NCBI RefSeq assembly: GCF_053078305.1
Contig: NZ_CP166879.1
DNA: 64,000 nt
Direction: 5' to 3' (one strand)
A model generated the notes under the pieces. That model was not told the origin of the DNA. It made no database searches and was given only the letters and a program-made list of their open reading frames with translations. Shown in pieces: positions 19,753-39,601 of the stretch (position 1 is its first letter; each line of letters starts with the position of its first letter). Made by a program: the position numbers and the translations under genes.

Positions 19753-21810
19753 ATGAATATTATGACGTCCAAATGGGTTCAACTATCATCAATGCCCGGA
19801 AACTTTACCGTTAAAGTTTCCGGTGGTACAGCGGCATTTCTTGAGGCTCCTTTTCCTCCGGCTGAAACGAAAGGAGGAATGACATTTGCTGACTGTCTCA
19901 TCAGTTTTAATACACAGGATTGCCTGTGGGTAAGGCCAGTATCCGGTGATCCGAACGTGGAAATTACCGGAGCGGGTATTGGTGCTGTCATTCCGTTAAG
20001 TGCTGATGTTGCCGGTACTACTGAACCGTCAGACTGGGATAATGCTGAAACACATACCCGTCCGGCAGGAAATGAAACGGCTTCCAGCTCCCCTTCCTGG
20101 TATTACGTGATTGTTATAGCCGGTCAGTCCAATGCTTCATCTTATGGTGAAGGGTTGCCCCTGCCGGATTCTTATGATCGTCCTGATCCACGTATTATGC
20201 AGCTGGCACGCAGGAATACACAAACCCCCGGAGGTATTCCCTGCAAATACAATGAAATCATTCCAGCAGATCACTGCCTTCATGATGTTCAGAATATGAG
20301 TCTGCTGAACCATCCAAAAGCAGACCTGAAAAAAGGGCAGTATGGTTGTGTGGGTCAGGGACTTCATATTGCGAAAAAAGTATTACCGGTGATTCCTGCT
20401 GATGCCGGGATTTTACTGGTTCCCTGTGCCCGTGGCGGCTCTGCTTTTACAACCGGCGCAGTTGGCTCATTCGATCCGGCAAGTGGTGCAGCCGAGGCGT
20501 CACTACGCTGGGGAGTGGATACCCCACTGTATCAGGATCTTGTCAGTCGAACGAAAGCGGCACTTGAGGCGAATCCAAAGAATGTGCTGTTATCTGTCGT
20601 ATGGATTCAGGGGGAAGGAGACCTTAAAGCGACCCCGGCCCAGCATGGTGCCCAGTTTACTGCGATGGTGAAAAAATTCCGTGCGGATCTTGGTGCTTTC
20701 TCCGGTCAGTGTATTGGTGGTTCATCAGACAGTGTGCCGTGGTTATGTGGTGACACAACCTATGACTGGAAAGAGAAGAACCCGGCGGCATATGAAACCA
20801 TTTATAGCGGATATAAAAACCGGGCTTCCGAGAACATTCACTTTGTTCCACTGATGCACGATGAGTTCGGTAATAAAACCGCGACCAACCTGCCGGAGCA
20901 CGACCCGGATATCGCTTCTGCCGGGTATTATGGTGCGGAATCACGGGGAGATGGCAACTGGACAACAGCATCCAGGGCAACCCATTTTAGCTCCTGGGCG
21001 CGCCGTTTTCTGGTCTCAGATCGTTTTGCATCAGCAATTCTTAAATATGCAGGTCTGACCTCTGCATTTATTGCCGGTGTGGCCCCTGATGGTGAAGCCC
21101 TGCCTCAGCCCGCGCCGGGTGGAAAACCGGAAGCTCCGACAGGTAGTCAGCCAGGAAGCAGTGAGTCCCCCCAGCCGACATCCCCGTCACTCCGTACGCT
21201 GCTTTCACTTAAAGCATCAGCAGGGGAAGCCCCGGCTCAGGGATGGAAAATTACAGATGGTACAATCCAGCTGACGGACGAAGGTAAAGCGCTGACCGTA
21301 TCCAAACAAAGCGGAAAAACCTGGTCACTTACCCATGCGACCAGTGCTGCCGGAGAGCTGTTGCAGCATGGTGGTCAGTTGACCTGTAAATTCCGTCTGT
21401 CAGGTGAAGTAAAAGAAGGCCAGTTTGCTCTGGGTATTTACCTCCACACCGATACGGTCCCGGAAGGTGTAACCATGAGTGGTACAGGCACACCGTTCCT
21501 GATGGCGTATTATCTCCAGACAACAGGCGGCCAGTTAAATCTGATGCACCATAAAACAGGGGGGAATACGAAACTGGGATCATTTGGAGCCTACAATAAC
21601 CAGTGGCATACACTTGTCCTGAAGTTTACGGCGGGAAGTGCCCAGGTAACGCCTGTGCTGGATGGCACTCCGGGCCAGGCATTCCAGATGGTGAAAGATG
21701 CACTTTCCCCTGCCAAAGATACGCTGACACTGACAGATGTCACCAAAGGGGCAACTTATGGCGTGTCTTTTGAGAGCGTTGTCCTTGAGGTTAATACCCC
21801 TGCGGCATAA
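19753..21810 (+). CDS. SASA/DUF303-type carbohydrate esterase with C-terminal beta-sandwich (lectin-like) domain; accessory gene
   Basis: 685-aa ORF; GQSN motif (IAGQSNASSYGEG) about 120 aa from the N-terminus, typical of sialate-O-acetylesterase-like SGNH enzymes. No obvious signal peptide. Not part of the Mu core. Confidence 0.6.
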   Translation: MNIMTSKWVQLSSMPGNFTVKVSGGTAAFLEAPFPPAETKGGMTFADCLISFNTQDCLWVRPVSGDPNVEITGAGIGAVIPLSADVAGTTEPSDWDNAETHTRPAGNETASSSPSWYYVIVIAGQSNASSYGEGLPLPDSYDRPDPRIMQLARRNTQTPGGIPCKYNEIIPADHCLHDVQNMSLLNHPKADLKKGQYGCVGQGLHIAKKVLPVIPADAGILLVPCARGGSAFTTGAVGSFDPASGAAEASLRWGVDTPLYQDLVSRTKAALEANPKNVLLSVVWIQGEGDLKATPAQHGAQFTAMVKKFRADLGAFSGQCIGGSSDSVPWLCGDTTYDWKEKNPAAYETIYSGYKNRASENIHFVPLMHDEFGNKTATNLPEHDPDIASAGYYGAESRGDGNWTTASRATHFSSWARRFLVSDRFASAILKYAGLTSAFIAGVAPDGEALPQPAPGGKPEAPTGSQPGSSESPQPTSPSLRTLLSLKASAGEAPAQGWKITDGTIQLTDEGKALTVSKQSGKTWSLTHATSAAGELLQHGGQLTCKFRLSGEVKEGQFALGIYLHTDTVPEGVTMSGTGTPFLMAYYLQTTGGQLNLMHHKTGGNTKLGSFGAYNNQWHTLVLKFTAGSAQVTPVLDGTPGQAFQMVKDALSPAKDTLTLTDVTKGATYGVSFESVVLEVNTPAA

Positions 21811-22328: not shown

Positions 22329-22402
22329 CAATACAAACCGACAGCTTCTCCTGTCGGTTTGATTTTCATGGGCGATGTATATACCAGTCAGAGGAAATAA
22401 TC

Positions 22403-22772: not shown

Positions 22773-22845
22773 TTTCTCCTGCCTGAACAGATGCATCTCT
22801 GCTTTACAGGAGGCCGGGGAATATCATAGGATACACCACGAGCTC

Positions 22846-23000
22846 AGAGTGAAGCATTGATGCAGTTTTTTACAGATTGACCCAGAATAGTTCGCGCTAT
22901 CTGAGTCGCCATTTATGTAGTCCCGAAGTAAAGCATTGATGCAAACTTGTCTAAATCGGCCCAGCATAGTTCCAGCTATGCTGGGTTTCCCTTTTATGTA
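22846..23000. repeat. Two tandem ~77-bp direct repeat units, each with AAGCATTGATGCA box plus hairpin plus TTTATGTAGT
   Basis: Copy 2 contains a perfect 10-bp inverted repeat CCCAGCATAG/CTATGCTGGG followed by a T-rich run; copy 1 is a degenerate version. Confidence 0.6.
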
Positions 23001-23184
23001 GTATCCTGTTGATTTGAAACATACTACATATACGCGCGATCCTACCTTCACTGGATAAAAAGTCAATAAAATGATCATTTTATGATCGTTTTCACCACCT
23101 AACTCTTCGTTTTCTTTAAGTAAATAATCACCGCCCTGAATCATTGTTGATGACTTTTCAATCTATTTGTTGTATCAATTAAAC

Positions 23185-23215
23185 AAATCGAATCGATCGT
23201 TTTTGTCGATCGATT
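23185..23215 (+). promoter_or_regulatory. GATC cluster upstream of com (putative Dam/OxyR-controlled mom promoter region)
   Basis: GATC at 23195 and 23208 within a short dyad; further GATC at 23038, 23073, 23084. Confidence 0.45.
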
Positions 23216-23258
23216 GCATGAGAAAGGCATCAACAACAAAGCAGGAGGTTATGCGGCC

Positions 23259-23459
23259 ATGTATCGAAACATACGGTGCCGACACTGCAATAAGCTACTG
23301 GCACGGGCCAGTTTCAGTTATCTGGAAGTAAAATGTCCGCGCTGTAAAACCCTCAATCAAATCACATCTCCGAGCGCCACAGAGCACCCCACATACACAA
23401 GGAAATCCTGTCGTGGGGAACAGAAAGCAAGTCACATCCCGTATCATCAGCACGCCTGA
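23259..23459 (+). CDS. com: Com zinc-finger translational activator of mom
   Basis: Motif [29 protein letters not shown]...EHPT aligns with the Mu Com C4 zinc finger as recalled; SD GCAGGAGG 10 nt upstream of the ATG at 23259. Confidence 0.75.
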
Positions 23460-24150
23460 ACTTATTCGCTATAACGACAATATCGTTGGTTATGGTTCCC
23501 GTGAGTTGCGGGTTGAGACAATAAGTTGCTGGCTGGCCAGACTGGTTATCGTCAATAAACATTACAGCCACCGTTTCGTAAATAACTCCTACCTTCATCT
23601 GGGCATATTTTCAGAACGGGAACTTGTTGGCGTAATGCAATGGGGTTACGCCCTTAACCCAAACAGTGGTGCACGCGTCGTAACGGGTACGCAGAACCGA
23701 GAATATATGGAGCTGAACCGGCTATGGATGCATGACTGTATGCCGAGAAACTCCGAATCAAGGGCAATCAGTTACGCGCTCAAGCTAATCAGGCAGCTTT
23801 ATCCGCAGGTACAGTGGGTTCAGTCGTTTGCAGATGAGCGTTGTGGCTGTCTTGGTGTCGTGTATCAGGCAAGCAATTTTGATTATGTAGGCAGCCATGA
23901 AACAATATTCTATGAACTTGATGGCGAGTGGTATCACGAGATTTGCAGGAATGCCATTAAACGAGGCGGACAACGAGGTGAACATCTGAGGGCTAATATC
24001 GACAGAGCCAGTGTGCATAAGTTCCGACAGTTTCGTTACATCCGGTTTCTGAACAAGAGGGCCAGAAAACGCCTCAACACAAAGCTATTCAAAGTCCAGC
24101 CTTACCCAAAACCACAAACAGTTAAAACTGGTTTGAAAGAGAGTGAATGA
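23413..24150 (+). CDS. mom: Mom-like DNA modification protein
   Basis: 245-aa ORF overlapping the com 3' end, last gene before the prophage right end as in Mu; start codon uncertain. Confidence 0.65.
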
Positions 24151-24295
24151 GCGCTTAAAAACTCATTCTAAAACTCAAAAGAAAAGCGCCGATTTAGTAT
24201 CAAATAAGTTGCGTATCGGCGTTTTTCAGCGGTATCAAATGAAATGCAAATCGGTATCAAAAAAATCGCCGCGCTATATGCCGCTGACCACAGCA
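24150..24295. other. Mu-like prophage right end (transposase-binding repeats) and junction with lambdoid Z remnant
   Basis: Repeated CGGTATC / GCGTTTTTCAGCGG motifs resembling MuA end-binding sites; sequence ends ...ACCACA (terminal CA) just before lambda-like coding sequence resumes. Confidence 0.35.
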
Positions 24296-24391
24296 TTTAA
24301 ACAGAATATTGAACGTATCCGGCGTGAACGCCTGCCAGAAGAACTGGCATATGCGCTGAAACAACAACTGAGGATTGCGATAAAACGATGA
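24296..24391 (+). pseudogene. 3' fragment of lambda Z-like tail gene, disrupted by the Mu-like insertion
   Basis: Short reading frame ending in ATGA overlap with the U start, as at a lambda Z/U junction; no N-terminal part present. Confidence 0.4.
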
Positions 24392-26419: not shown

Positions 26420-29012
26420 TCTGGTTATTGATTTGAGTCTGGATGCGGCCCGGTTTGATGAACAGATGGCCCGGGTACGCCGTCATTTTTCCAGTCTGGA
26501 GGCGGATGCCAGAAAAACCGCCAGTACTGTTGAACAGGGGCTGAGCCGACAGGCGCTGGCTGCACAAAAAGCCGGGATATCAGTCGGACAGTATAAGGCT
26601 GCCATGCGCACACTGCCCGCACAGTTCACGGATATTGTCACTCAGCTTGCCGGTGGTCAGAATCCCTTCCTTATCATGCTGCAGCAGGGGGGGCAGATCA
26701 GCGATTCATTCGGTGGACCGCTCAGCCTGCTTACCCTGCTGAAGGAGGAACTTCTCGGGATCAGGGATGCCTCTGAATCATCAGAGGATTCGCTGTCAGA
26801 TACGGCAAATGCTCTGGCTGAAAATGCCCGGAATGCCGGTGAACTGGGACGATTTATGTCGGTGGCCCGTGTGGCGGCAGGTGGCGGGGTTGCCGTACTG
26901 GCCGCGCTTGCTGCTGCCGCCTGGCAGGCAGAGCAGGCTGACCGGGCCTTATTGCGTTCACTGACCCTGACCGGAGGGGCGGCTGCCACCACAACGGCCG
27001 AATTGTGGAAAATGGCCGGGGTGATCAGCGATGAAGCCGGTGGTGGTATCAGACAGGCGGCAGAAAATCTGGCCCGTCTGGCAGAAAGCGGGAAATATAC
27101 CGCCGGGCAGCTACGGATCATGGGGGAAACCTCTCAGAGATGGCTGCAGACGGTGGGGGACGATGCCGGGAAGGTGGAAAAAGCCTTTGAAGGGATTGCA
27201 GCAGATCCGGTGAAGGCGCTGGCCTCCCTGAATCAGCAGTATAACTTCCTGAGCGTTTCCCAGTTACGCCATATTGATGAGCTTGAGCGCACGAAAGGTA
27301 AACAGGCTGCGGTGACGGAGGCGATGTCCCTGTTTGCGGATGTTATGAATGCACGTCTGGAGCAACTTGATAAAGCGGCCACGCCGGTGGAAAAAATCTG
27401 GGACGATGTTAAAACCTGGACTTCTGACGCATGGGCATGGATAGGTGATCATACACTGGGGGCACTCAGTCTGATCACTGACGTGGTGGCAGGAACCGTT
27501 GAACAGGTGAAGCTGCTGCTTGTGCAGGGGGATCTGGCGCTGGCTGAATTTATTCAGTCAGCCTGGGAAACGACAAAGAATGTGCCCGGCGTTGGTGCGT
27601 TGTTTGGTGAACTGGCAGAAGAGAACCGCGTATTTATTGAGAAAACAAAACGCGATGAACTGGCGCTGAGAAAATCCATTGCGGAACGGGATGCGCGTAT
27701 ACGCCAGGGGGAAATGGGGTACATCAACCGTTCGCGTGCAACAGGCGTCAGCAAAGGTCCGGGGCAGCAGGAAGCCGTCAGCCGTCTGGCTGAAGAGCTG
27801 ACAGGTAAAAAGCATACATCACCGAAAACGCGCTCTGCCGGGGAGAGGGAAGAGGAGCAGGCAAGAGAGGCTCTGCTTGCCCTTGAAGCTGAACTCAGGA
27901 CGCTGGAAAAACACAGCGGTGCGAATGAGAAAATCAGCCGGCAACGCCGTGATTTATGGAAGGCGGAAAGTCAGTATGCGGTCCTGAAAGAGGCTGCCAC
28001 GAAACGACAGTTATCCGGGCAGGAAAAATCCCTGCTGGCCCATGAGAAAGAGACGCTGGAGTACAAACGCCAGCTGGCTGAGCTGGGCGACAAGGTTGAA
28101 TACCAGAAACGCCTGAATGAGCTGGCACAGCAGGCGGCACGGTTTGAAGAGCAGCAGAGCGCGAAGCAGGCCGCCATCAGCGCAAAAGCCCGTGGTCTCA
28201 CTGACCGTCAGGCGCAGCGGGAGTCTGAAGCGCAGCGTCTTCGTGACGTGTATGGCGATAATCCGCAGGCGCTGGCACAGGTCACCGGGGCACTGAAACA
28301 GACATGGGCGGATGAAGACATGCTGCGCGGTGACTGGCTGGCCGGGCTGAAGTCCGGCTGGGGCGAGTGGGCAGAAAGTGCGACGGACAGTTTTTCGCAG
28401 GTTAAAAGTGCTGCCACGCAGACCTTTGACGGTATTGCGCAGAATATGGCGGCGATGCTGACCGGTGCAGAGGCAGACTGGCGGGGATTCACCCGTTCGG
28501 TGCTGTCCATGATGACAGAAATCCTGCTTAAACAGGCCATGGTGGGAATTGTCGGGCGTATCGGCAGTGCCATTGGTGGTGCTTTCGGTGGTGGTGCATC
28601 TGCTTCCTCGGGGACGGCCATTGAGGCTGCGGCGGCGAACTTCCATTTCGCGACCGGAGGATTTACGGGGACGGGCGGCAAATATGAGCCTGCGGGGATA
28701 GTTCACCGCGGGGAGTTTGTTTTCACGAAAGAGGCAACCAGCCGGATAGGTGTGGGGAATCTTTACCGTCTGATGCGCGGGTATGCGGAAGGTGGTTATG
28801 TGGGTGCTGCCGGAAGTCCGGCGCAGATGCGGCGGGCGGAAGGTATTAATTTTAATCAGAACAATCACGTGGTGATTCAGAACGACGGTATCAACGGACA
28901 GGCGGGGCCGCAGCTGATGAAGGCGGTGTATGACATGGCCCGTAAGGGGGCGCAGGATGAACTCCGGCTGCAGTTACGTGATGGCGGTATGTTATCAGGG
29001 AGCGGGCGATGA
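26400..29012 (+). CDS. H: Tail tape measure protein H
   Basis: 870 aa; N- and C-terminal regions closely resemble lambda H. Confidence 0.9.
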   Translation: MSQPAGDLVIDLSLDAARFDEQMARVRRHFSSLEADARKTASTVEQGLSRQALAAQKAGISVGQYKAAMRTLPAQFTDIVTQLAGGQNPFLIMLQQGGQISDSFGGPLSLLTLLKEELLGIRDASESSEDSLSDTANALAENARNAGELGRFMSVARVAAGGGVAVLAALAAAAWQAEQADRALLRSLTLTGGAAATTTAELWKMAGVISDEAGGGIRQAAENLARLAESGKYTAGQLRIMGETSQRWLQTVGDDAGKVEKAFEGIAADPVKALASLNQQYNFLSVSQLRHIDELERTKGKQAAVTEAMSLFADVMNARLEQLDKAATPVEKIWDDVKTWTSDAWAWIGDHTLGALSLITDVVAGTVEQVKLLLVQGDLALAEFIQSAWETTKNVPGVGALFGELAEENRVFIEKTKRDELALRKSIAERDARIRQGEMGYINRSRATGVSKGPGQQEAVSRLAEELTGKKHTSPKTRSAGEREEEQAREALLALEAELRTLEKHSGANEKISRQRRDLWKAESQYAVLKEAATKRQLSGQEKSLLAHEKETLEYKRQLAELGDKVEYQKRLNELAQQAARFEEQQSAKQAAISAKARGLTDRQAQRESEAQRLRDVYGDNPQALAQVTGALKQTWADEDMLRGDWLAGLKSGWGEWAESATDSFSQVKSAATQTFDGIAQNMAAMLTGAEADWRGFTRSVLSMMTEILLKQAMVGIVGRIGSAIGGAFGGGASASSGTAIEAAAANFHFATGGFTGTGGKYEPAGIVHRGEFVFTKEATSRIGVGNLYRLMRGYAEGGYVGAAGSPAQMRRAEGINFNQNNHVVIQNDGINGQAGPQLMKAVYDMARKGAQDELRLQLRDGGMLSGSGR

Positions 29013-29338
29013 AAACCTTTCGCTGGAAAGTGAAGCCGGATATGGAGGTGAACTCGCAGCCGTCGGTGCGTGAAGTGCGTTTTGGTGACGGGTACTCACA
29101 GCGTATGGCGGCAGGGCTGAATGCTGACCTGAAAACATACCGGGTGATGCTTTCCGTGACCCGGGAGGAGGCCCGGCATCTGGAAGCGTTCCTGGCAGAG
29201 CACGGGGGCTGGAAGGCATTTTTGTGGAAGCCACCCTATGCATACCGGCAGATAAAGGTGACCTGTGCCGGGTGGTCTGCGCGGGTCGGGATGCTGCGCG
29301 TTGAGTTCAGCGCGGAGTTTAAGCAGGTGGTGAACTGA
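29009..29338 (+). CDS. M: Minor tail protein M
   Basis: 109 aa, lambda position. Confidence 0.85.
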   Translation: MKTFRWKVKPDMEVNSQPSVREVRFGDGYSQRMAAGLNADLKTYRVMLSVTREEARHLEAFLAEHGGWKAFLWKPPYAYRQIKVTCAGWSARVGMLRVEFSAEFKQVVN

Positions 29339-30036
29339 TGCAGGATATTCACGAAGAAACTCTTAACGAGTCGGTTAAGTCAGAGCAGTCACCGCGGGTG
29401 GTGCTCTGGGAAATCGACCTGACGGCGCAGGGCGGTGAGCGGTATTTTTTCTGCAATGAGCTGAATGAAAAAGGGGAGCCGGTGACCTGGCAGGGGCGTG
29501 AATATCAGGCGTACCCGATTGAGGGCAGCGGCTTTGAGATGAACGGAAAGGGCAGCAGTGCCCGCCCGTCGCTGACAGTGTCCAATCTTTTTGGGCTGGT
29601 CACCGGGATGGCGGAGGATTTGCAGAGCCTGGTGGGTGCCACGGTGGTCCGCCGCCGGGTGTATGCGCGTTTTCTGGATGCGGTGAATTTTGTGGCAGGC
29701 AATCCGGAGGCAGACCCTGAGCAGGAGCTGATGGACCGGTGGGTGGTGGAGCAGATGTCAGCGCTGACGGCCATGACGGCCTCGTTTGTGCTGGCGACAC
29801 CGACGGAGACGGACGGTGCGCTGTTTCCCGGTCGCATCATGCTGGCGAACACCTGTATGTGGGATTACCGGGGCGATGAATGCGGGTATAACGGTCCGGC
29901 AGTGGCGGATGAGTTCGACAACCCCACCACGGATATCCGGAAGGACAGATGCAGTAAATGCATGCGCGGGTGTGAGATGCGCGGCATGGTGGCTAATTTC
30001 GGCGGTTTCCTTTCCATTAATAAACTTTCGCAGTAA
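29338..30036 (+). CDS. L: Minor tail protein L
   Basis: 232 aa, lambda position. Confidence 0.85.
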   Translation: MQDIHEETLNESVKSEQSPRVVLWEIDLTAQGGERYFFCNELNEKGEPVTWQGREYQAYPIEGSGFEMNGKGSSARPSLTVSNLFGLVTGMAEDLQSLVGATVVRRRVYARFLDAVNFVAGNPEADPEQELMDRWVVEQMSALTAMTASFVLATPTETDGALFPGRIMLANTCMWDYRGDECGYNGPAVADEFDNPTTDIRKDRCSKCMRGCEMRGMVANFGGFLSINKLSQ

Positions 30037-30046
30037 ATCCCGTTTT

Positions 30047-30790
30047 ATGACACAGACTGAATCAGCGATTCTGGCGCATGCCCGGCGGTGTGCGCCAGCG
30101 GAGTCGTGCGGCTTCGTGATAAGCACCCCGGAGGGCGAACGGTACCAGCCCTGCGTGAATATCTCCGCAGAGCCGGAGGCGTATTTTCGTATTGCACCGG
30201 AAGACTGGCTGCGGGCAGATATGCAGGGGGAGATTGTGGCGCTGGTCCACAGTCATCCCGGTGGTCTGCCCTGGCTGAGCGAGGCGGACCGGCGGCTGCA
30301 GATAAAGAGTGCCCTGCCCTGGTGGCTGGTCTGCCGGGGCGACATTCACCGGTTCCGCTGTGTGCCGCACCTGACCGGACGGCGCTTTGAACACGGTGTG
30401 ACGGACTGTTACAGCCTGTTCCGGGATGCATACCATCTGGCGGGGATAACGCTGCCGGATTTTGTGCGTGAGGATGACTGGTGGCGCAACGGCCAGAACC
30501 TGTACCTGGACAACCTGGCGGACAACGGCTTTTACCGGGTGTCTCCGTCCTGTGCACAGGCGGGCGATATCCTGCTGTGCTGCTTTGGTTCATCGGTGCC
30601 GAATCATGCCGCCATTTACTGTGGCAACGGTGAACTGCTTCACCATATACCTGAACAACTGAGTAAACGGGAGAGGTATTCTGAAAAATGGCAACGACGA
30701 ACGCATTCTGTCTGGCGTCACCGCCACTGGTCCGTATCTGCCTTCACGGGGATTTACAACGATTTGGTCGCCGCATCAGCCTGTATGTGA
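30047..30790 (+). CDS. K: Tail assembly protein K
   Basis: ATG at 30047 (MTQTESAILAHARRC...), 247 aa. Confidence 0.8.
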   Translation: MTQTESAILAHARRCAPAESCGFVISTPEGERYQPCVNISAEPEAYFRIAPEDWLRADMQGEIVALVHSHPGGLPWLSEADRRLQIKSALPWWLVCRGDIHRFRCVPHLTGRRFEHGVTDCYSLFRDAYHLAGITLPDFVREDDWWRNGQNLYLDNLADNGFYRVSPSCAQAGDILLCCFGSSVPNHAAIYCGNGELLHHIPEQLSKRERYSEKWQRRTHSVWRHRHWSVSAFTGIYNDLVAASACM

Positions 30791-31368
30791 ACACGGCAGC
30801 GGAGGCCATACGTGCCCTGTCACTGCAGGTGCCGGGATTCCGCGGTCAGATGAACGAAGGCTGGTACCGGATACGTATTGCCGGTGAGGATACCGCGCCG
30901 GAGGCGGTGTATGCCCGTCTTCACGAACAACTGGGTGAGGGAGCGGTCATCCACATTGTACCGCGACTGGCCGGAGCCGGGGGAAATGGTGTTTTTCAGG
31001 TGGTGCTGGGGGCAGCAGCCATCGTGGGCTCTTTCTTCACAGCCGGTGCAACGATGGCGTTGTGGGGCGCAGCCCTGAGTGCCGGAGGGCTGACTGCCAC
31101 CACGATGCTGTTCTCACTGGGTGCCAGCATGATACTGGGTGGTGTGGCTCAGATGCTGGCCCCGAAGGCAAAGACGCCGGAGTACAAAAGTACGGATAAC
31201 GGTAAACAGAACACGTATTTTTCGTCACTGGACAACATGATTGCCCAGGGTAACCCGATGCCGGTACCTTACGGTGAAATGCTGGTTGGTTCACGACGGA
31301 TATCCCAGGACATTAGCACCCGTGATGAGGGCGGAGACGGGAAAGTGGTGGTTATCGGACGGGGATAA
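30688..31368 (+). CDS. I: Tail assembly protein I
   Basis: 226 aa, overlaps the K 3' end as in lambda. Confidence 0.8.
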   Translation: MATTNAFCLASPPLVRICLHGDLQRFGRRISLYVNTAAEAIRALSLQVPGFRGQMNEGWYRIRIAGEDTAPEAVYARLHEQLGEGAVIHIVPRLAGAGGNGVFQVVLGAAAIVGSFFTAGATMALWGAALSAGGLTATTMLFSLGASMILGGVAQMLAPKAKTPEYKSTDNGKQNTYFSSLDNMIAQGNPMPVPYGEMLVGSRRISQDISTRDEGGDGKVVVIGRG

Positions 31369-31609
31369 AAATAAAAAAATCCCGCAGAGTTAGTGGAGCT
31401 GCGGGAAATAACGATGAAGATTAATGTTATGGAGTTATTTTTTTGGGCAGAAAAACAGTAACGCAGCGTCATTATAGCGGCTACAGGCAATTGCCGGAAA
31501 TGTGAAGAATTTCAGAAATTTTATTCCGTCATGACACAGGCACCCTCCGGGGTGCCTGTTGTTTTTGGGCATAAACAGATTCAGACATCAGACAGGAGAG
31601 GGGGACAGA

Positions 31610-34600
31610 GTGGGTAAAGGGGGCGGCAAGGGGCACACACCGCGTGAGGCGAAGGACAATCTCAAATCCACGCAGATGATGAGCGTGATTGATGCCATTG
31701 GTGAGGGACCGGTGGAAGGTCCGGTGAAGGGACTGCAGAGTATTCTGGTGAACAAAACCCCGCTGACGGACACGGACGGTAATCCCGTGATACACGGTGT
31801 GACCGCCGTCTGGCGCGCCGGGGAGCAGGAGCAGACACCGCCGGAAGGCTTTGAGTCCTCCGGGGCAGAAACCGCACTGGGCGTGGAGGTGACGAAGGCA
31901 AAGCCGGTGACGCGCACCATCACGTCAGCGAACATTGACCGTCTGCGGGTCACCTTCGGGGTGCAGTCACTGGTGGAGACCACCTCAAAGGGTGACCGTA
32001 ATCCCTCTTCTGTCCGCCTGCTGATTCAGCTTGAGCGTAACGGGCACTGGGTGACGGAGAAGGATATCACCATTAACGGCAAGACCACCTCGCAGTACCT
32101 GACGTCTGTGATTCTGAATAATCTCCCTGAGCGCCCCTTTAACATCCGGATGGTCAGGGAGACGGCGGACAGCACCACGGACCAGCTGCAGAACAGAACG
32201 CTGTGGTCGTCATACACCGAAATCATCGATGTGAAACAGTGCTACCCGAACACGGCCATTGTGGGGCTGCAGGTGGATGCGGAGCAGTTTGGTGGCCAGC
32301 AGCTGACGGTGAACTACCATATCCGTGGTCGCATCATTCAGGTGCCGTCAAACTATGACCCGGAAAAACGCACCTACAGCGGTATCTGGGACGGGAGTCT
32401 GAAACCGGCATACAGCAATAACCCGGCCTGGTGCCTGTGGGACATGCTGACCCACCCGCGCTACGGCATGGGAAAACGCCTGGGGGCCGCGGATGTGGAC
32501 AAGTGGGCACTGTATGCCATCGGGCAGTACTGCGACCAGACGGTCCCGGATGGTTTCGGGGGAACAGAGCCGCGGATGACTTTCAATGCGTACCTGTCAC
32601 AGCAGCGTAAGGTGTGGGATGTCCTGGGGGATTTCTGCTCGGCGATGCGCTGTATGCCGGTATGGAACGGCCAGACGCTGACGTTCGTTCAGGACCGTCC
32701 GTCGGATGTGGTGTGGCCGTACACCAACAGCGATGTGGTGGTGGATGATAACGGCGTGGGGTTCCGCTACAGCTTCAGTGCCCTGAAGGACCGGCACACG
32801 GCGGTGGAGGTGAATTACACCGACCCGCAGAACGGCTGGCAGACCTCCACGGAACTGGTGGAAGACCCGGACGCCATCCTGCGCTACGGACGCAACCTGC
32901 TGAAGATGGATGCGTTTGGCTGTACCAGCCGCGGTCAGGCCCACCGTGCCGGACTGTGGGTGATAAAGACCGAACTGCTGGAAACGCAGACGGTGGATTT
33001 CACGCTCGGGTCACAGGGGCTGCGGCATACGCCCGGTGACATCATTGAAATCTGTGATAACGACTATGCCGGGACCCTGACCGGCGGACGCATCCTGTCC
33101 ATTGATGCCGCCAGCCGCACACTGACGCTGGACCGTGAGGTGACACTGCCGGAAGCAGGGACATCGACGGTGAACCTGATTAACGGCAGCGGTAAGCCGG
33201 TGCGCGTGGACATCACTGCACACCCCGCGCCGGACCGGATACAGGTCAGCGCCCTGCCGGATGGCGTGGAGACATACGGTGTGTGGGGACTCTCCCTGCC
33301 GTCACTGCGTCGTCGCCTGTTCCGCTGTGTTTCCATCCGGGAAAACACGGACGGCACTTTTGCCATCACGGCAGTGCAGCACGTACCGGAAAAAGAAGCC
33401 ATTGTGGATAACGGGGCTCGCTTTGAGCCGCTGTCCGGTTCACTGAACAGCGTTATCCCGCCGGCAGTGCAGCACCTCACGGTGGAGGTGAGTGCCTCAG
33501 ACGGCCAGTATCTGGCGCTGGCGAAATGGGACACGCCGCGGGTGGTGAAGGGCGTGCGCTTCAGTCTGCGCCTGACCAGCGGAAACGGTGAAAACAGCCG
33601 CCTGGTGACCACCGCCATCACTGCCGACACGGAGCACCGTTTCAGTGGCCTGCCTCTGGGGGAATACACCCTGACGGTCAGGGCGATAAACAGCTACGGC
33701 CAGCAGGGCGAACCTGCCACCACCGCGTTCCGGATTAATGCGCCTGCAGCACCGGCCAGCATTGAGCTGACGCCGGGGTATTATCAGATAACAGCAGTAC
33801 CGGTGCTGGCGGTGTATGACCCGACGGTACAGTTTGAGTTCTGGTTCTCGGAGGCAAAAATCGCAGACACATCTCAGGTGGAAACCTCTGCCCGTTATCT
33901 GGGGACAGGCAGCCAGTGGAGCGTCTCCGGCCCGCACATCAAGCCGGGGAAGGATTTCTGGTTTTATGTGCGCAGCGTTAACCTGGTGGGGAAATCTGCG
34001 TTTGTGGAAGCCAGTGGCCGGGCGAGCAATGATGCAGAAGGGTATCTGGGGCTGTTTCGGGAAAAGATAGGAAAACTGCATCTGGCACAGGGGATGTGGG
34101 AGCTGATTGATAACAGCCAGCTTGACAATGAGATGGCGGAGATGAAGACCACCATCACCGAAACCCGCAATGAAATCACGCAGACGGTCAGTAAAACCCT
34201 GGAAGACCAGAGCGCCACCATACAGCAGATACAGCGGGTGCAGACAGACACAAATAACGACCTGGCTGCGCTGTACATGCTGAAGGTGCAGAAAACAAAA
34301 AACGGCATTCCGTATGTTGCCGGTATAGGTGCGGGGATTGAGGATGCTGATGGCCAGCCCCTGAGCAATATTCTGCTGCAGGCGGACCGTATCGCGATGA
34401 TTAACCCGGAGAACGGCAACACCACGCCGCTGTTTGTGGCGCAGGGGAATCAGCTGTTCATGAACGATGTGTTCCTGAAGCGGTTGTTTGCAGTGAGCAT
34501 CACCTCGTCCGGCAATCCCCCGACGTTTTCCCTGACGCCGGACGGGAAACTGACGGCCCGCAATGCTGATATCAGCGGACATATCAGTGCGAACTCGGGC

Positions 34601-35077
34601 ACGCTGAATAATGTCGTGATAGCGGAGAACTGTACGATAAATGGCACGCTGAAAGCGGAGAACATTATTGGTGATCTTGTGAAATGTGCAGGGGTGGCTT
34701 TTCCGGTGGATGGTAGTTACCTTGCGAACGGTACACGAACGCTGACGGTATATGACGATCACAGCTTTGACCGGCAGATTATAATCCCGCCGATAATCTA
34801 TGTCGGGTCAAAACAGGAATCCCGTACCAGTAATGACATCTGGACAGAGTGCTTCCTGCATGTTGATCAGAACGGACGCCGGATTTATTCAGGCAGGTCA
34901 GTGACAGAGCCGGGAATTTTCAGCGGGATCATCGATATGCCAGCCGGAGGTGGTCATATCACCCTGAGTTTTACCGTAAGTTCACGACGTCAGAACGGGA
35001 GTTTTGGCAGTTCACGTATCAGTAACCTTCAGGCGATAGTGGTGAAGAAAAACAGCGCGGGGATCAGTATCCGCTGA
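31610..35077 (+). CDS. J: Tail tip / host specificity protein J
   Basis: GTG start (GTG GGT AAA GGG...) after SD AGGAGAGGGGG; 1155 aa with strong lambda-J similarity and a divergent C-terminal receptor-binding region. Confidence 0.9.
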
Positions 35078-35275
35078 ACATCGCGCCCCGGGATTGCCGG
35101 AAGGAGACAAAAACCGTACAGTATGCGCGGGTGCCTTTGGCTGATGGCCGGAGGGAACACCTGAAGGCCGGAAAGACGAAGGCCCCGGACAAACATTCAT
35201 GTTTAACCCGAGGCCTGACTTTCGATCTTCAGCAAATTGAAGGTTAGCGCCTCTCCGTAAAAGGAGCAAGCGTTT

Positions 35276-35416
35276 ATGTCGCAAAAACCGTTAAAAACCA
35301 CCGTGATTTGTACCACGGTAGTGCTCATTATCTGGATCACCCACACTTCACTGTGCGAGTTCCGGTTCCGGATAGCGGGCGCGGAGATTGCGGCGTTCTT
35401 ACAGTGTAAGCAGTAA
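35276..35416 (+). CDS. Hok/Gef-family type I toxin-like small membrane protein, 46 aa, in the lom position
   Basis: MSQKPLKTTVICTTVVLIIWITHTSLCEFRFRIAGAEIAAFLQCKQ carries the Hok signature (TM helix, then SLCE-x-R-x-R...E-I/V-AAF...C); SD AAGGAG 9 nt upstream. Confidence 0.6.
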   Translation: MSQKPLKTTVICTTVVLIIWITHTSLCEFRFRIAGAEIAAFLQCKQ

Positions 35417-35513
35417 GAAACCGTGGCGTGGGAGAATATCCCCCGCCGACCGGTTGCTGAGGGTGGTCAGCCGGATGGCACCGTTTTAACACCAACAAAC
35501 CACAAATATTACC

Positions 35514-35547
35514 GCAGGCCGGGAAACCGGTACTGCGGTTTTTTTAT
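35514..35547 (+). terminator. Rho-independent terminator downstream of the hok-like gene
   Basis: CCGCAG...CTGCGG stem followed by TTTTTTT. Confidence 0.55.
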
Positions 35548-35558
35548 GGGGGAAATCC

Positions 35559-37292
35559 ATGACAGTCAGAATATCGGGTGTGCTGAAGGATGGTACGGGA
35601 AAAGCGGTACCGGGATGCACGATAGAGCTGAAAGCGCGCCGCACAACGGAGACGGTGATTGTCACCACGGTGGCGTATGGTCAGCCGGGGGAAACCGGCA
35701 GTTACAGTATGGATGTTGAGCCGGGGTTGTACCGGGTGACGCTGAACACGGAAGGGTACGCGCCGTCATATGTGGGTGACATTCTGGTGAAGGCGGATTC
35801 TGCACCGGGAACGCTGAATAAATTTCTGATGGACCTGGAAGACGCACAGTATTACCCGAAAGCCCTTGCAGAGCTGGAAGCGGTGGCAGCGGAAATCCTG
35901 AAGCGTGCAGAAGCGTCAGCGGCCAGTGCAGAGGAAGCGAAGAAACGGGCAGAGAATGCGCGGGGACCGAAGGGGGATAAGGGAGACACCGGGCCACAGG
36001 GGATTCCCGGGCCAAAAGGCGATACCGGCGAGCGGGGGCCAAAGGGTGAGCGTGGTGAGACAGGGCCACAGGGGCTTCAGGGTGTGAAAGGTGAACGGGG
36101 AGAGAAGGGCGAAAAAGGCGAGCCGGGAGGGCCGGATGCGACGACGGCACAGAAGGGAATTGTGCAGTTAAGCAGCGCAACGGACAGTGATGATGAAACG
36201 AAGGCAGCCACGCCGAAAGCGGTGAAAGCGGCAATGGACAAAGCGGACGGATGCCTGGAGAAAGCGAAAAACGGTGACGATATCCCGGATAAGGTGAAGT
36301 TTCTGAACACCGTGGGAGCAGCCAGAGTATACGGGCGGGACATTCATACGGGGGCCGGTGAATGGACCACGAGTGAGTTTGTCGCCTGGCTGAAAGAAAA
36401 AGGGGCATTTGACCAGCCTTACTGGATGATGAAGGCATCACTGCTTGCGTCAATGAATAAAGTCATCACAGATGTCGGACCGGGAAAACTCAATCTGGGT
36501 GGCTGTGTCATTGAGGTGATGGGAACGTATGAGGCTGCCATAGTCCGGGTCACCATTGGCGAATACGGTGCAACGGGGTTTATTAATGGCACGGTCTGTA
36601 CCTGTACGGTTTACGGCGACACACAGTATTTCCACTGGCGGGTGGATTACAGCACAAAAAACAAACCGGATACGGTCAGCCAGCGGGATGCCAGTACGAC
36701 GCAGAAAGGTGTGGTGCAGTTAAGCAGTGATACTGGCAGTAATGACGAAACAAAGGCAGCCACGCCGAAGGCCGTGAAGGCGGCAATGGATGTGGCAAAT
36801 GAAGCGAAAACAAAGGCAGAAGAGGCTGCAGCAGGAGGTGGTGTTCCCGGTCCGAAAGGAGAGAAAGGTGACCCCGGAGCACAGGGTCCGAAAGGTGAAA
36901 CGGGAGCAACAGGCCCCGCTGGTCCGCGGGGAGCGCAGGGACCGAAAGGGGAGAAAGGCGACCCCGGTCCCAGAGGTGAGCGTGGAGAAACCGGGCCGAT
37001 GGGGCCGCCGGGGGCATCAGGAGATGACGGGAAGAGTCGTGTCATGGGCTTCAGGCTGGGGAATCCGGTAACGTATGAGTTGCAGGAGGGGGACCATGGC
37101 TGGTCAGTTAATCTGGCTGATGGTTCAGTCATTACAGGGCTTTCGGGGAACACTCAGGGCGGCGTCAGCCGTGTTACAACGATTTACTACAGGCCGCTGC
37201 AGATGACGTTTGATGGCTCTCACTGGCGCACCGTTGGTGTTGGTGAGTATGTGTCGTCAGGAGCGCCGGGGCGTGAGTATTTTTCATTATAA
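35559..37292 (+). CDS. stf: Side tail fibre protein with two collagen-like Gly-X-Y tracts
   Basis: 577 aa; [37 protein letters not shown] and a second GXY run. Confidence 0.85.
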
Positions 37293-37333
37293 AGCGCATC
37301 ACTTGTCAGACATGTAACCGGGAGGACTTACAG

Positions 37334-38005
37334 ATGCACATAAAGAATTTCAGACAATACACGCCGGAAAATCCGGATGTGCCGGGTGCGATGTACCTGA
37401 AATCAGAGGATGGTCAGGACTGGTATGAGTGTCAGTCGTTATTTTCAGCAGAGACGCTGAAGGTGGTTTATAACAGTGCCGGGGTCATTACCGGCATCAG
37501 CAGGGTGGCATCAGTTCTGTGGCCTGTGAATCAGAGTGTGGTGGAGGTGGCGGATACGGAAGAAAACCGCAAAGCTGACATCTCCGGGCGCTGGGGTTTT
37601 GACGGGGAGAAAATCACGGACCTGCTGACCGCGGAGAAAGCGCGAGGGATGAAGGGCGATGAAATTAACGCCTGGCGTAATGCGATGGAAGCGGCGAACT
37701 ACACGTTTGAGCACAATGGGCGTAAATGGGACTACGGGAAGTCAACGCAGACGCGTCTTGAGCCGTCGGTGGCGGCAGCGAAAGCGGGGAAACTGCCGGA
37801 GGCGTTTTTCTGGACGGATGCGGAAAACAATGATGTGCCGGTGACAGCAGACGAGCTTATTGCGCTGAGTGAAGCGGCAGAGCAGGCGATGTTTACCAAA
37901 GGGATGGAAATCCACGTCCGGCAGCGCACCATGAAGAAAGAGCTGGAAAAGCTGACCAGTGAGGATGAGATACTGGCATACAGGGTTGGCTGGGCACAGG
38001 AATAA
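37334..38005 (+). CDS. tfa: Tail fibre assembly protein
   Basis: 223 aa, lambda Tfa-like, immediately after stf. Confidence 0.8.
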   Translation: MHIKNFRQYTPENPDVPGAMYLKSEDGQDWYECQSLFSAETLKVVYNSAGVITGISRVASVLWPVNQSVVEVADTEENRKADISGRWGFDGEKITDLLTAEKARGMKGDEINAWRNAMEAANYTFEHNGRKWDYGKSTQTRLEPSVAAAKAGKLPEAFFWTDAENNDVPVTADELIALSEAAEQAMFTKGMEIHVRQRTMKKELEKLTSEDEILAYRVGWAQE

Positions 38006-38317
38006 CAGACAAAAAGATGGGGGACCATCACCTCCCCCATGAACTGCGTTGACTATGTAATTATTGTGAAGAGACCTTACCTACACAGATAAAGAGTGCC
38101 ACGGAAAAGTTAATTCCGGAAGTGATGGAGCTCTCATTTTTGCGTGCTTTTTGTTCATGGGATTTACATGGGGCATCTTGGGGCATATATGGGACAAAAG
38201 AAGTCCTCAGATAAACAGAGAAATCGAGTTCAGGATTCTTATTGAAAAATGTAATTATCTGAAAAAACTTAGAAAACGCAAATAAGGCCACAGAATGTTA
38301 GAAAACATCTATGAATT

Positions 38318-39601
38318 ATGGATTTCCAGTTATATTCGCTCGGCGCAGCGTTAGTGTTTCATGAAATATTTTTTCCTGAATCATCAACGGCAATGGCGTT
38401 AATTTTGGCAATGGGAACCTACGGTGCAGGTTATGTGGCGCGTATTGTCGGAGCATTTATTTTCGGCAAAATGGGCGACAGAATAGGGCGTAAAAAAGTG
38501 CTCTTTATTACCATCACCATGATGGGGATCTGTACCACCTTAATTGGTGTGTTACCGACCTATGCACAGATTGGTGTTTTTGCCCCCATCTTGCTGGTGA
38601 CGCTGCGTATTATTCAGGGGTTGGGTGCAGGTGCGGAAATTTCCGGTGCCGGTACGATGCTGGCGGAATATGCGCCAAAAGGTAAGCGCGGAATTATCTC
38701 CTCATTTGTAGCTATGGGAACTAACTGCGGAACCTTGAGCGCAACGGCAATCTGGGCCTTTATGTTCTTCATTCTCAGTAAAGAGGAACTGCTGGCGTGG
38801 GGATGGCGTATACCGTTCCTGGCGAGCGTTGTCGTGATGGTCTTTGCTATCTGGTTGCGTATGAATCTGAAAGAAAGCCCGGTCTTTGAGAAGGTTAACG
38901 ACAGCAACCAACCGACAGCAAAACCTGCACCTGCTGGTAGCATGTTCCAGAGCAAATCCTTCTGGCTGGCAACAGGGCTGCGTTTTGGTCAGGCAGGTAA
39001 CTCCGGGTTAATTCAGACTTTCCTTGCAGGCTATTTAGTACAGACGTTATTGTTTAACAAAGCAATTCCAACAGATGCATTGATGATCAGTTCGATTCTC
39101 GGCTTTATGACCATTCCGTTCCTTGGTTGGTTATCCGATAAAATTGGTCGCCGGATCCCGTATATTATTATGAATACCTCTGCGATTGTGCTGGCATGGC
39201 CAATGCTTTCTATCATCGTAGATAAAAGCTATGCCCCGAGCACCATTATGGTTGCACTGATTGTGATTCATAACTGTGCGGTGCTGGGATTATTTGCTCT
39301 GGAAAACATTACCATGGCAGAAATGTTCGGCTGTAAAAACCGCTTTACCCGGATGGCTATTTCTAAAGAAATTGGTGGTCTTATCGCTTCCGGTTTTGGT
39401 CCTATCCTTGCGGGTATTTTCTGCACCATGACGGAATCCTGGTATCCGATCGCCATTATGATCATGGCATATTCAGTGATTGGTTTAATCTCTGCGCTGA
39501 AAATGCCAGAAGTGAAAGACCGTGATTTAAGTGCGCTGGAAGACGCTGCGGAGGATCAACCGCGTGTTGTAAGAGCTGCGCAACCTTCCAGAAGTCTGTA
39601 A
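38318..39601 (+). pseudogene. ydfJ: MFS (MHS-family) transporter, 5'-truncated at the prophage junction
   Basis: 427-aa ORF begins inside the first transmembrane region with no N-terminal motif; prophage tail genes lie directly upstream. Confidence 0.7.

Follow-up and report, generated by a model that had tools for sequence, protein, structure and literature searches.

How is the com–mom operon of this prophage controlled, and which of the GATC sites upstream of it take part in that control? A preliminary description of the locus had listed five such sites and proposed for them the epigenetic switch of phage Mu, in which Dam methylation governs the repression of the mom promoter by OxyR. We have followed this up in the window, by which we mean the whole 64-kb stretch of DNA that was analysed. 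From its first position to about 24278 the window is the right-hand portion of a Mu-like transposable prophage of E. coli, with genes for portal, head, sheath, tube, tape measure, baseplate and tail fibre as well as gin, and com–mom lies at the right end, with the Mu-like head, tail and gin genes upstream. The host gene interrupted by the prophage is gene Z of a lambdoid prophage. The Mu-like element's right end (24151-24278), where homology to the copy in E. coli STEC2018-607 stops at about 24278, is followed by a gene Z fragment: the lambdoid Z remnant (24227-24388) covers only profile positions 135-190 and is succeeded by U and V, and the Pfam Minor_tail_Z match of the open reading frame at 24143-24391 is restricted to those same positions. 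In STEC2018-607 a near-identical prophage is inserted in bcsA, and in other strains it sits in other genes. The prophage type has been named Sp18-like, and its Mom and Com homologues have already been noted (PMC3299994). The prophage that carries com–mom at its right end is of this Sp18-like, transposable (Mu-like) type, and a literature search found no analysis of the mom regulatory region for the type.

The two genes themselves are as initially described, a zinc-finger open reading frame and an overlapping mom gene. On the plus strand, com (23259-23459) matches Pfam PF10122 (Zn_ribbon_Com, 2e-12) and the PHROG family “gpCom control of modification” (5e-13); its product is a zinc ribbon of 66 aa with cysteines at positions 7, 10, 27 and 30, shares 47% identity with Mu Com, and is a predicted zinc-ribbon translational activator. 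On the same strand mom (23413-24150) starts with GTG and encodes 245 aa matching Pfam Mom (PF25680, 3.2e-77) and PHROG Mom-like (8.6e-84); with 78% identity to Mu Mom, the protein is by homology an adenine-modification enzyme. The genes overlap by 47 nt, compared with 50 nt in Mu, where homologous com and mom genes likewise overlap in a transposable phage and likewise stand at its right end; gin abuts com in Mu, whereas several extra genes separate the two in the window. The Mu-like prophages FluMu (hin1523), Pnm1 (nma1821) and B3 (ORF48) also have, at their right ends, a com gene that overlaps the DNA-modification gene behind it (PMC3299994), but in these phages a methyltransferase follows com, whereas the window has a true Mom homologue.

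Translational control may also follow the Mu pattern. The Shine-Dalgarno sequence of com, read from the sequence as AGGAGG (23243-23248, plus strand), is unchanged across all variants. Folding predicts a translation-inhibition hairpin in the transcript (23387-23418, plus strand), in which CCCCAC (23387-23392) pairs with GUGGGG (23413-23418) so that the GUG start of mom lies inside the stem. The predicted hairpin has the same position as in Mu, whose mRNA formed an equivalent CCCAC/GUGGG stem in the same fold run; its z-score is just -1.0, and its support comes from positional homology and not from thermodynamics. A search for known RNA families between 21800 and 24300 gave no match, and a longer leader structure (23130-23262, z = -3.8) was not adopted, as its complementarity is lost in the related prophage HH35.

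All five GATC sites of the preliminary description exist, at 23038, 23073, 23084, 23195 and 23208, and five in 170 bp make the tightest such cluster of the 64-kb window. Compared with dinucleotide-shuffled versions of the local 259-bp sequence this is unusual (P = 0.006), but 36% of random placements produce an equally tight cluster of five at some place in the 64 kb, and window-wide the cluster is not significant; we therefore dropped the cluster as a single unit in favour of the proximal pair. The distal three sites lie at about codons 20-36 of a minus-strand open reading frame (22824-23144), the first 77 residues of which match phrog_26524 (2.5e-34). This is a divergent, truncated gene, annotated by PGAP as a frameshifted pseudogene in relatives and intact, with 154 aa, in E. 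coli O26 RM10386. The segment that carries these sites is, moreover, missing from two sibling prophages, in which homology to the window starts at about 23126 (AST198) and about 23150 (HH35). Located inside the coding sequence of a divergent gene and outside the block that the siblings share, the distal three sites are unlikely to be parts of the switch in which they had been included. The intergenic region is accordingly 23145-23258 (114 bp), with only the proximal pair inside, and among the five GATCs the regulatory region includes this pair alone. For annotation, the relevant sites number two and not five, and the true intergenic control region is now identified.

What marks the pair is its geometry, not its number: by count, the 133-bp proximal block with its two GATCs is not enriched (P = 0.28), and a pair with this 13-bp spacing occurs once in the window. 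The two Dam sites (23195-23198 and 23208-23211) are embedded in the dyad AATCGATCG-N7-CGATCGATT (23191-23215), which the preliminary description had recognised and which is a perfect 9-bp inverted repeat with arms at 23191-23199 and 23207-23215 and a 7-nt spacer. The symmetry is not independent evidence, because two CGATCG palindromes give a dyad automatically. Two OxyR-like half-sites can be read here, a proximal one, ATCGTTTTTGTCGAT (23196-23210), and a distal one without GATC, ATTTGTTGTATCAAT (23165-23179), each with 7 of 10 positions matching ATAGnTnnnAnCTAT; this consensus is loose, with 128 half-sites of at least 7/10 in the window, and on the same scale Mu scores 7, agn43 8 and gtr 8. 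It is the arrangement that is rare: the half-sites lie 31 bp apart, centre to centre, two OxyR-like half-sites at this distance form one instance in the 64-kb window, and shuffling the 114-bp intergenic region produced such a pair 0.7% of the time. With the full 37-bp OxyR consensus, the window's single best match (14/20) falls within 23143-23210, as do three of the seven window matches at 13/20. The operator lies 44-94 bp upstream of the com ATG, within the intergenic region. By analogy with the characterised systems discussed below, the pair is probably a Dam-sensitive OxyR operator for com–mom.

Conservation points in the same direction. Seven E. coli variants were collected via flanking homology, the dyad not being used, and in all of them both half-sites and the dyad are unchanged, while the bases just past the dyad and the spacer vary. 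A Mom-alignment scan of 100,044 species genomes returned 66 loci. Six enterobacterial com–mom loci were found through Mom alone, namely the window, Mu, Edwardsiella, Pantoea and two Enterobacteriaceae genomes, and every one of the six has a 13-bp GATC pair upstream of com; at com–mom loci of Desulfovibrio, alphaproteobacteria, Pseudomonas and marine gammaproteobacteria none of 28 has it. Three more enterobacterial mom loci, in which no com zinc ribbon was recognised, also carry the pair, and at mom in five loci with an upstream sequence like that of the lambdoid Aeromonas phage it is absent. Such restriction to enterobacterial loci is what one would expect of a host-specific Dam/OxyR operator. 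The exact spacing is kept despite the fact that just 17-22 of the 28 bases around the pair are identical. When the upstream partner half-site was taken as the best scorer among 18 offsets tested, it fell 31-32 bp from the pair centre in eight of nine sites (window, Mu, agn43, gtr C and four further enterobacterial com–mom loci), the exception being gtr A, whose partner is downstream. The 13-bp pair with its partner half-site at 31-32 bp is thus a recurrent feature, present at each of the enterobacterial Mu-like mom loci that the search found. A scan of viral contigs for the dyad gave 24 matches with com behind them, and a short-query BLAST search of the operator against phages gave chance matches only. 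Mom homologues in phage databases added little, being Mu itself (Yersinia phages), proteins encoded without com (Aeromonas) or Pseudomonas proteins.

Three characterised systems allow one to place this element. The part of the proposed Mu-like switch that holds is the proximal pair: the window dyad region can be aligned with the GATC II-III region of Mu (19 of 28 bases identical), Mu has the identical 13-bp GATC spacing (L001 2178/2191), and its upstream half-site is also 31 bp off. The arrangement as a whole is not that of Mu, however. Mu has three GATCs (spaced 18 + 13 bp) at about -88, -70 and -57, and the window two; the last GATC stands 78 bp from the com ATG in Mu and 51 bp from it in the window, i.e. 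27 bp closer (Edwardsiella, 54 bp). The longer interval of Mu accommodates TTAT-N6-ATAA, a -35-like ACCACA, a 19-bp spacer and the -10 TAAGAT (PMC2582627), and the target of the activator C is an imperfect dyad whose centre is at -43.5 and which overlaps with the -35 region (PMC2582627). No C-binding dyad of this type is present in the window, where the interval between pair and com is too short for a Mu-type C box: TTAT-N6-ATAA has no match in 23000-23258 even at one mismatch, and is absent at the promoter PI too.

The closest match among the characterised operators compared is that of agn43, with 21 of 28 bases identical (ATCGATCGTTTATATCGATCGAT as against ATCGATCGTTTTTGTCGATCGAT in the window), the same 13-bp spacing (L005 437/450) and an upstream half-site at 32 bp. 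There, one repressing OxyR site overlaps the core promoter region (PMC2909390). In contrast to the window, agn43 possesses another GATC, its third, 19 bp upstream, and the start site precedes all three; agn43 (flu) of E. coli is moreover a phase-variable chromosomal (CP4-44) adhesin gene with no phage activator and no translational control. In the phase-variation switch gtr of P22 and Salmonella both GATC pairs are spaced by 13 bp like the window pair, and half-sites B and C lie 32 bp apart, as compared with 31 in the window. Each GATC pair forms one OxyR half-site there, Dam methylation abolishes OxyR binding, and the half-site spacing, about three helical turns, suits reduced OxyR (PMC2909390). 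GATC3 and GATC4 of gtr stand at -46 and -33 over the -35 region (PMC2909390), and the window pair would be at about -45 and -32 if transcription started near 23240. Unlike the window, whose intergenic region is without a second pair, gtr possesses another pair further upstream (half-site A), which is activating and makes the switch bistable, and the genes regulated by gtr are unrelated to com–mom. Every component of the element described here is already known; it belongs to the class formed by Mu Pmom, agn43 and gtr, with an operator position that is probably gtr-like.

This position depends on where the promoter lies. Two plus-strand terminators upstream of com (22334-22361 and 22958-22987) insulate the operon, which therefore needs a promoter of its own. 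A promoter scan of the plus strand passed no consensus-grade promoter, and this lack is consistent with a weak, controlled one. The sole hexamer kept in all Sp18-like variants is [CT]ATCA[AT], 20 nt past the last GATC; it reads CATCAA in the window (23228-23233, plus strand), a weak candidate -10 at a conserved offset, and TATCAT in NCCP15648 and AST198. With a -10 at CATCAA, transcription would start near 23240 and the GATCs would stand near -45 and -32, an assignment that we advance tentatively. Elsewhere, in diverged relatives, near-consensus -10 elements follow the last GATC by 11-13 nt: TGgTATCAT at locus L082, TATACT at locus L172 and TGaTAGATT in Edwardsiella. L082 has three GATCs spaced 18 + 13, and the promoter scan puts its -35 inside the pair. 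With no more than 51 bp between the pair and the com start codon, the operator would extend over the -35 region; by analogy with gtr, overlap of the OxyR site with the core promoter is probable.

A late activator of the Mor/C family may also be needed. In the near-identical STEC2018-607 prophage its gene lies just upstream of the lysozyme gene, a part of the prophage outside the window, and encodes a C homologue of 140 aa with 40% identity to Mu C; the homologue in HH35 is 96% identical to that of STEC2018-607. A family late-promoter box was derived from Plys and PI of two phages with 96%-identical activators. It reads CTGAnnTnCCGCAAAnCCnGCC-N15/16-TTAYGCT, with box and -10 conserved and the spacer between them varying, and CTGAnnTnCCGCAAAnCCnGCC scores 33.9 bits at PI (3632). 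In 23100-23260 the best score is -0.7 bits, that is, there is no copy upstream of com, and a third copy looked for in the tail region was not found. In short com–mom operons in general (the Sp18-like lineage, Edwardsiella, L082 and L172) no late-activator box was detectable.

The same bases can be read in other ways. A promoter might lie upstream of the dyad, with -35 ATGACT (23150-23155), N17, -10 TATCAA (23173-23178) and a start near 23185; this would bring the GATC pair to about +10 to +26, within the transcribed leader, OxyR would act as an agn43-like block past the start, and the dyad, which can indeed be folded as a 9-bp RNA hairpin, would double as a hairpin of the leader RNA. Both hexamers are unchanged in the seven E. 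coli variants, including HH35 with its differing neighbours, and agn43 provides a precedent, since the IsrC/agn43 transcript is annotated from the first agn43 GATC, with all three GATCs downstream. The conservation is explained equally well, however, by the coincidence of these hexamers with the distal OxyR half-site; they match the consensus in just 8 of 12 positions, the last T of the -10 is missing, and they fail the promoter scan. In L172 and L082 they are lost, and strong -10 elements just past the pair are found instead. We consider such an upstream promoter unlikely. Under either promoter model, the operator would overlap the core promoter and not lie upstream of an activator site.

It is also conceivable that the dyad is the site of a phage regulator, be it a late activator of the Mor/C family, for which the C-like protein WP_001536795.1 is the candidate, or another protein, with the GATCs incidental or tuning and OxyR uninvolved. 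The position would suit such a regulator, as the C dyad of Mu is centred at -43.5 (PMC2582627) and that of the window would be at about -37 given a start near 23240; upstream of com no further activator site came to light, and a C homologue with so modest an identity to Mu C may differ in specificity. Yet the two other late promoters of the family share the late-promoter box, without any GATC dyad, the GATC-N9-GATC element also occurs at agn43 and gtr, both of which lack a phage activator, and it is retained at com–mom loci of differing phages, all of which makes this explanation very improbable. Lastly, the cluster might be non-regulatory, either defunct inherited sequence or chance in an AT-rich spacer. 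The counts given above would allow this, be it the frequency of equally tight clusters among random placements, the lack of enrichment in the proximal block or the three of five sites accounted for by coding sequence, but against it stand the exact spacing, which is kept at all six enterobacterial loci and at none of the 28 outside that order, and the fact that the element is unchanged within E. coli though adjacent bases vary; we regard a non-regulatory origin as extremely improbable.

The reading that we prefer, an OxyR operator over the promoter, can be set out as follows. The sequence itself establishes what the genes are, how the operon is laid out, and the operator's sequence, spacing and conservation; OxyR binding, its sensitivity to methylation, where the promoter lies and whether a late activator is needed are inferred by analogy. 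The half-sites at 23165-23179 and 23196-23210 would make up a single OxyR operator, the promoter-proximal half-site bearing both Dam sites. As in Mu, agn43 and gtr, reduced OxyR bound to this operator (23165-23210), with the GATC pair un- or hemimethylated, would block transcription. Full Dam methylation of both GATCs would exclude OxyR and leave a weak promoter open to the late activator or RNA polymerase. The operator likely spans the -35 of this promoter (start near 23240), so that repression would work by direct occlusion, as in gtr, whereas Mu has its operator upstream of the activator site. Once a transcript is made, Com would be translated and would open the hairpin over the mom GUG start, and Mom would then modify adenines of the phage DNA prior to packaging; in operons of the Mu type this modification, N6-carbamoylmethyl-adenine (ncm6A), goes with resistance to restriction. 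As a whole, we think it likely that this operator and occlusion explanation is correct.

The new point is a modest one: in one subgroup the operator appears to have shifted to the core promoter, with no activator site of the Mu type present. Should this be confirmed, the layered control of Mu, with OxyR upstream and C at -43.5, would not be the sole solution to the regulation of mom. The paper on gtr raises the question of whether mom expression is phase-varying (PMC2909390), and a confirmed operator-over-promoter layout would reopen it. One may speculate, though we think it quite unlikely, that in the short com–mom operons competition between Dam and OxyR mainly governs transcription and is heritably bistable in lysogens, giving phase-variable expression of Mom or of a C-5 methylase. 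A resident prophage would then provide its host with a phase-variable DNA hypermodification enzyme, and not with a strictly late lytic function. The AST198 prophage, in which a C-5 cytosine methylase gene follows com, carries it behind an identical regulatory block. Sp18-like prophages are common in Shiga-toxin-producing E. coli, so that any effect on host DNA modification would be widespread: of 5426 complete E. coli genomes, 232 contain related copies, and many of these 232 are from O157, O26 and O111 strains.

In the sibling prophage of E. coli AST198 (comparison sequence L006), mom is replaced after com by a gene for a C-5 cytosine DNA methylase (PF00145, 1.6e-42); the region in question, L006 1501-2840, is homologous to window 23126-23459 and onward. 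The methylase gene overlaps com, and both com and the regulatory block are retained, the block being identical to that of the window. The AST198 arrangement is a module swap which leaves the putative Dam/OxyR and Com control unchanged.

The putative OxyR operator is flanked by the arms of a 23-nt inverted repeat (23135-23157 and 23223-23245, 78% complementary), which extends into the com Shine-Dalgarno sequence; the RNA fold of 23130-23262 has a z-score of -3.8. This complementarity is retained, with a register shift, in NCCP15648 and is absent in E. coli HH35. The candidate -10 is separated from the Shine-Dalgarno sequence by a CAA repeat (23231-23241), whose copy number differs among relatives: three in the window, two in NCCP15648 and five in L102 (sequences compared: the window, L102 and L008).

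On the minus strand at 22824-23144 lies a truncated copy of the divergent phrog_26524 gene, to which no function is assigned and which is present at full length (154 aa) in E. coli O26 RM10386. The three distal GATCs fall in its 5' part, together with a perfect 18-bp palindrome, ATAAAATGATCATTTTAT, at 23066-23083. A direct repeat of ~53 nt occurs twice at 22848-23003 (75% identity, period 79), each copy followed by CCnTTTATGTAGT, and the second ends in a strong plus-strand terminator hairpin (22958-22987). Rfam gave no match for this direct-repeat region, which could be a small RNA or else a duplication by which the phrog_26524 gene was disrupted. The segment 22800-22923 is missing from the majority of the prophage copies in E. 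coli.

Whereas gin abuts com in Mu, the window prophage carries between them cargo genes that Mu lacks: one for a 685-aa protein containing DUF6645 and a SASA (sialate O-acetylesterase-like) domain (19753-21810), followed by DUF1378 and DUF826 genes. The Sp18-like phage family has a conserved late-promoter box, CTGAnnTnCCGCAAAnCCnGCC-N15/16-TTAYGCT, upstream of two genes, those for the protease/scaffold (PI) and the lysozyme (Plys), with copies at window 3632-3675 and, on the minus strand of two comparison sequences, at L003 ~8140-8095 and at L080 1580-1540 and 9770-9725; at PI just ~7 nt separate the -10 from the annotated ATG. Between the head-morphogenesis and virion-morphogenesis genes there is a minus-strand tRNA-like sequence (~2925-3000; acceptor GCCGGTG/CACCGGC, T-arm GGGTTCGACCCC), labelled tRNA-OTHER by PGAP in relatives and called by neither ARAGORN nor Rfam.

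Although GATC occurs on average once per 300 bp in the window, it is absent from kilobase-long stretches at 17238-19947 (2.7 kb), 27535-34672 (7.1 kb) and 35339-38526 (3.2 kb), located in the tail-fibre/gin region and the lambdoid tail genes; prophage regions without GATC have already been noted (PMC6602927). Downstream of the Mu-like prophage, Rfam matches above the gathering score identify the sok antitoxin RNA (35129-35287, 63.5 bits) and the Hfq-binding sRNA STnc560 (47657-47872, 276 bits).
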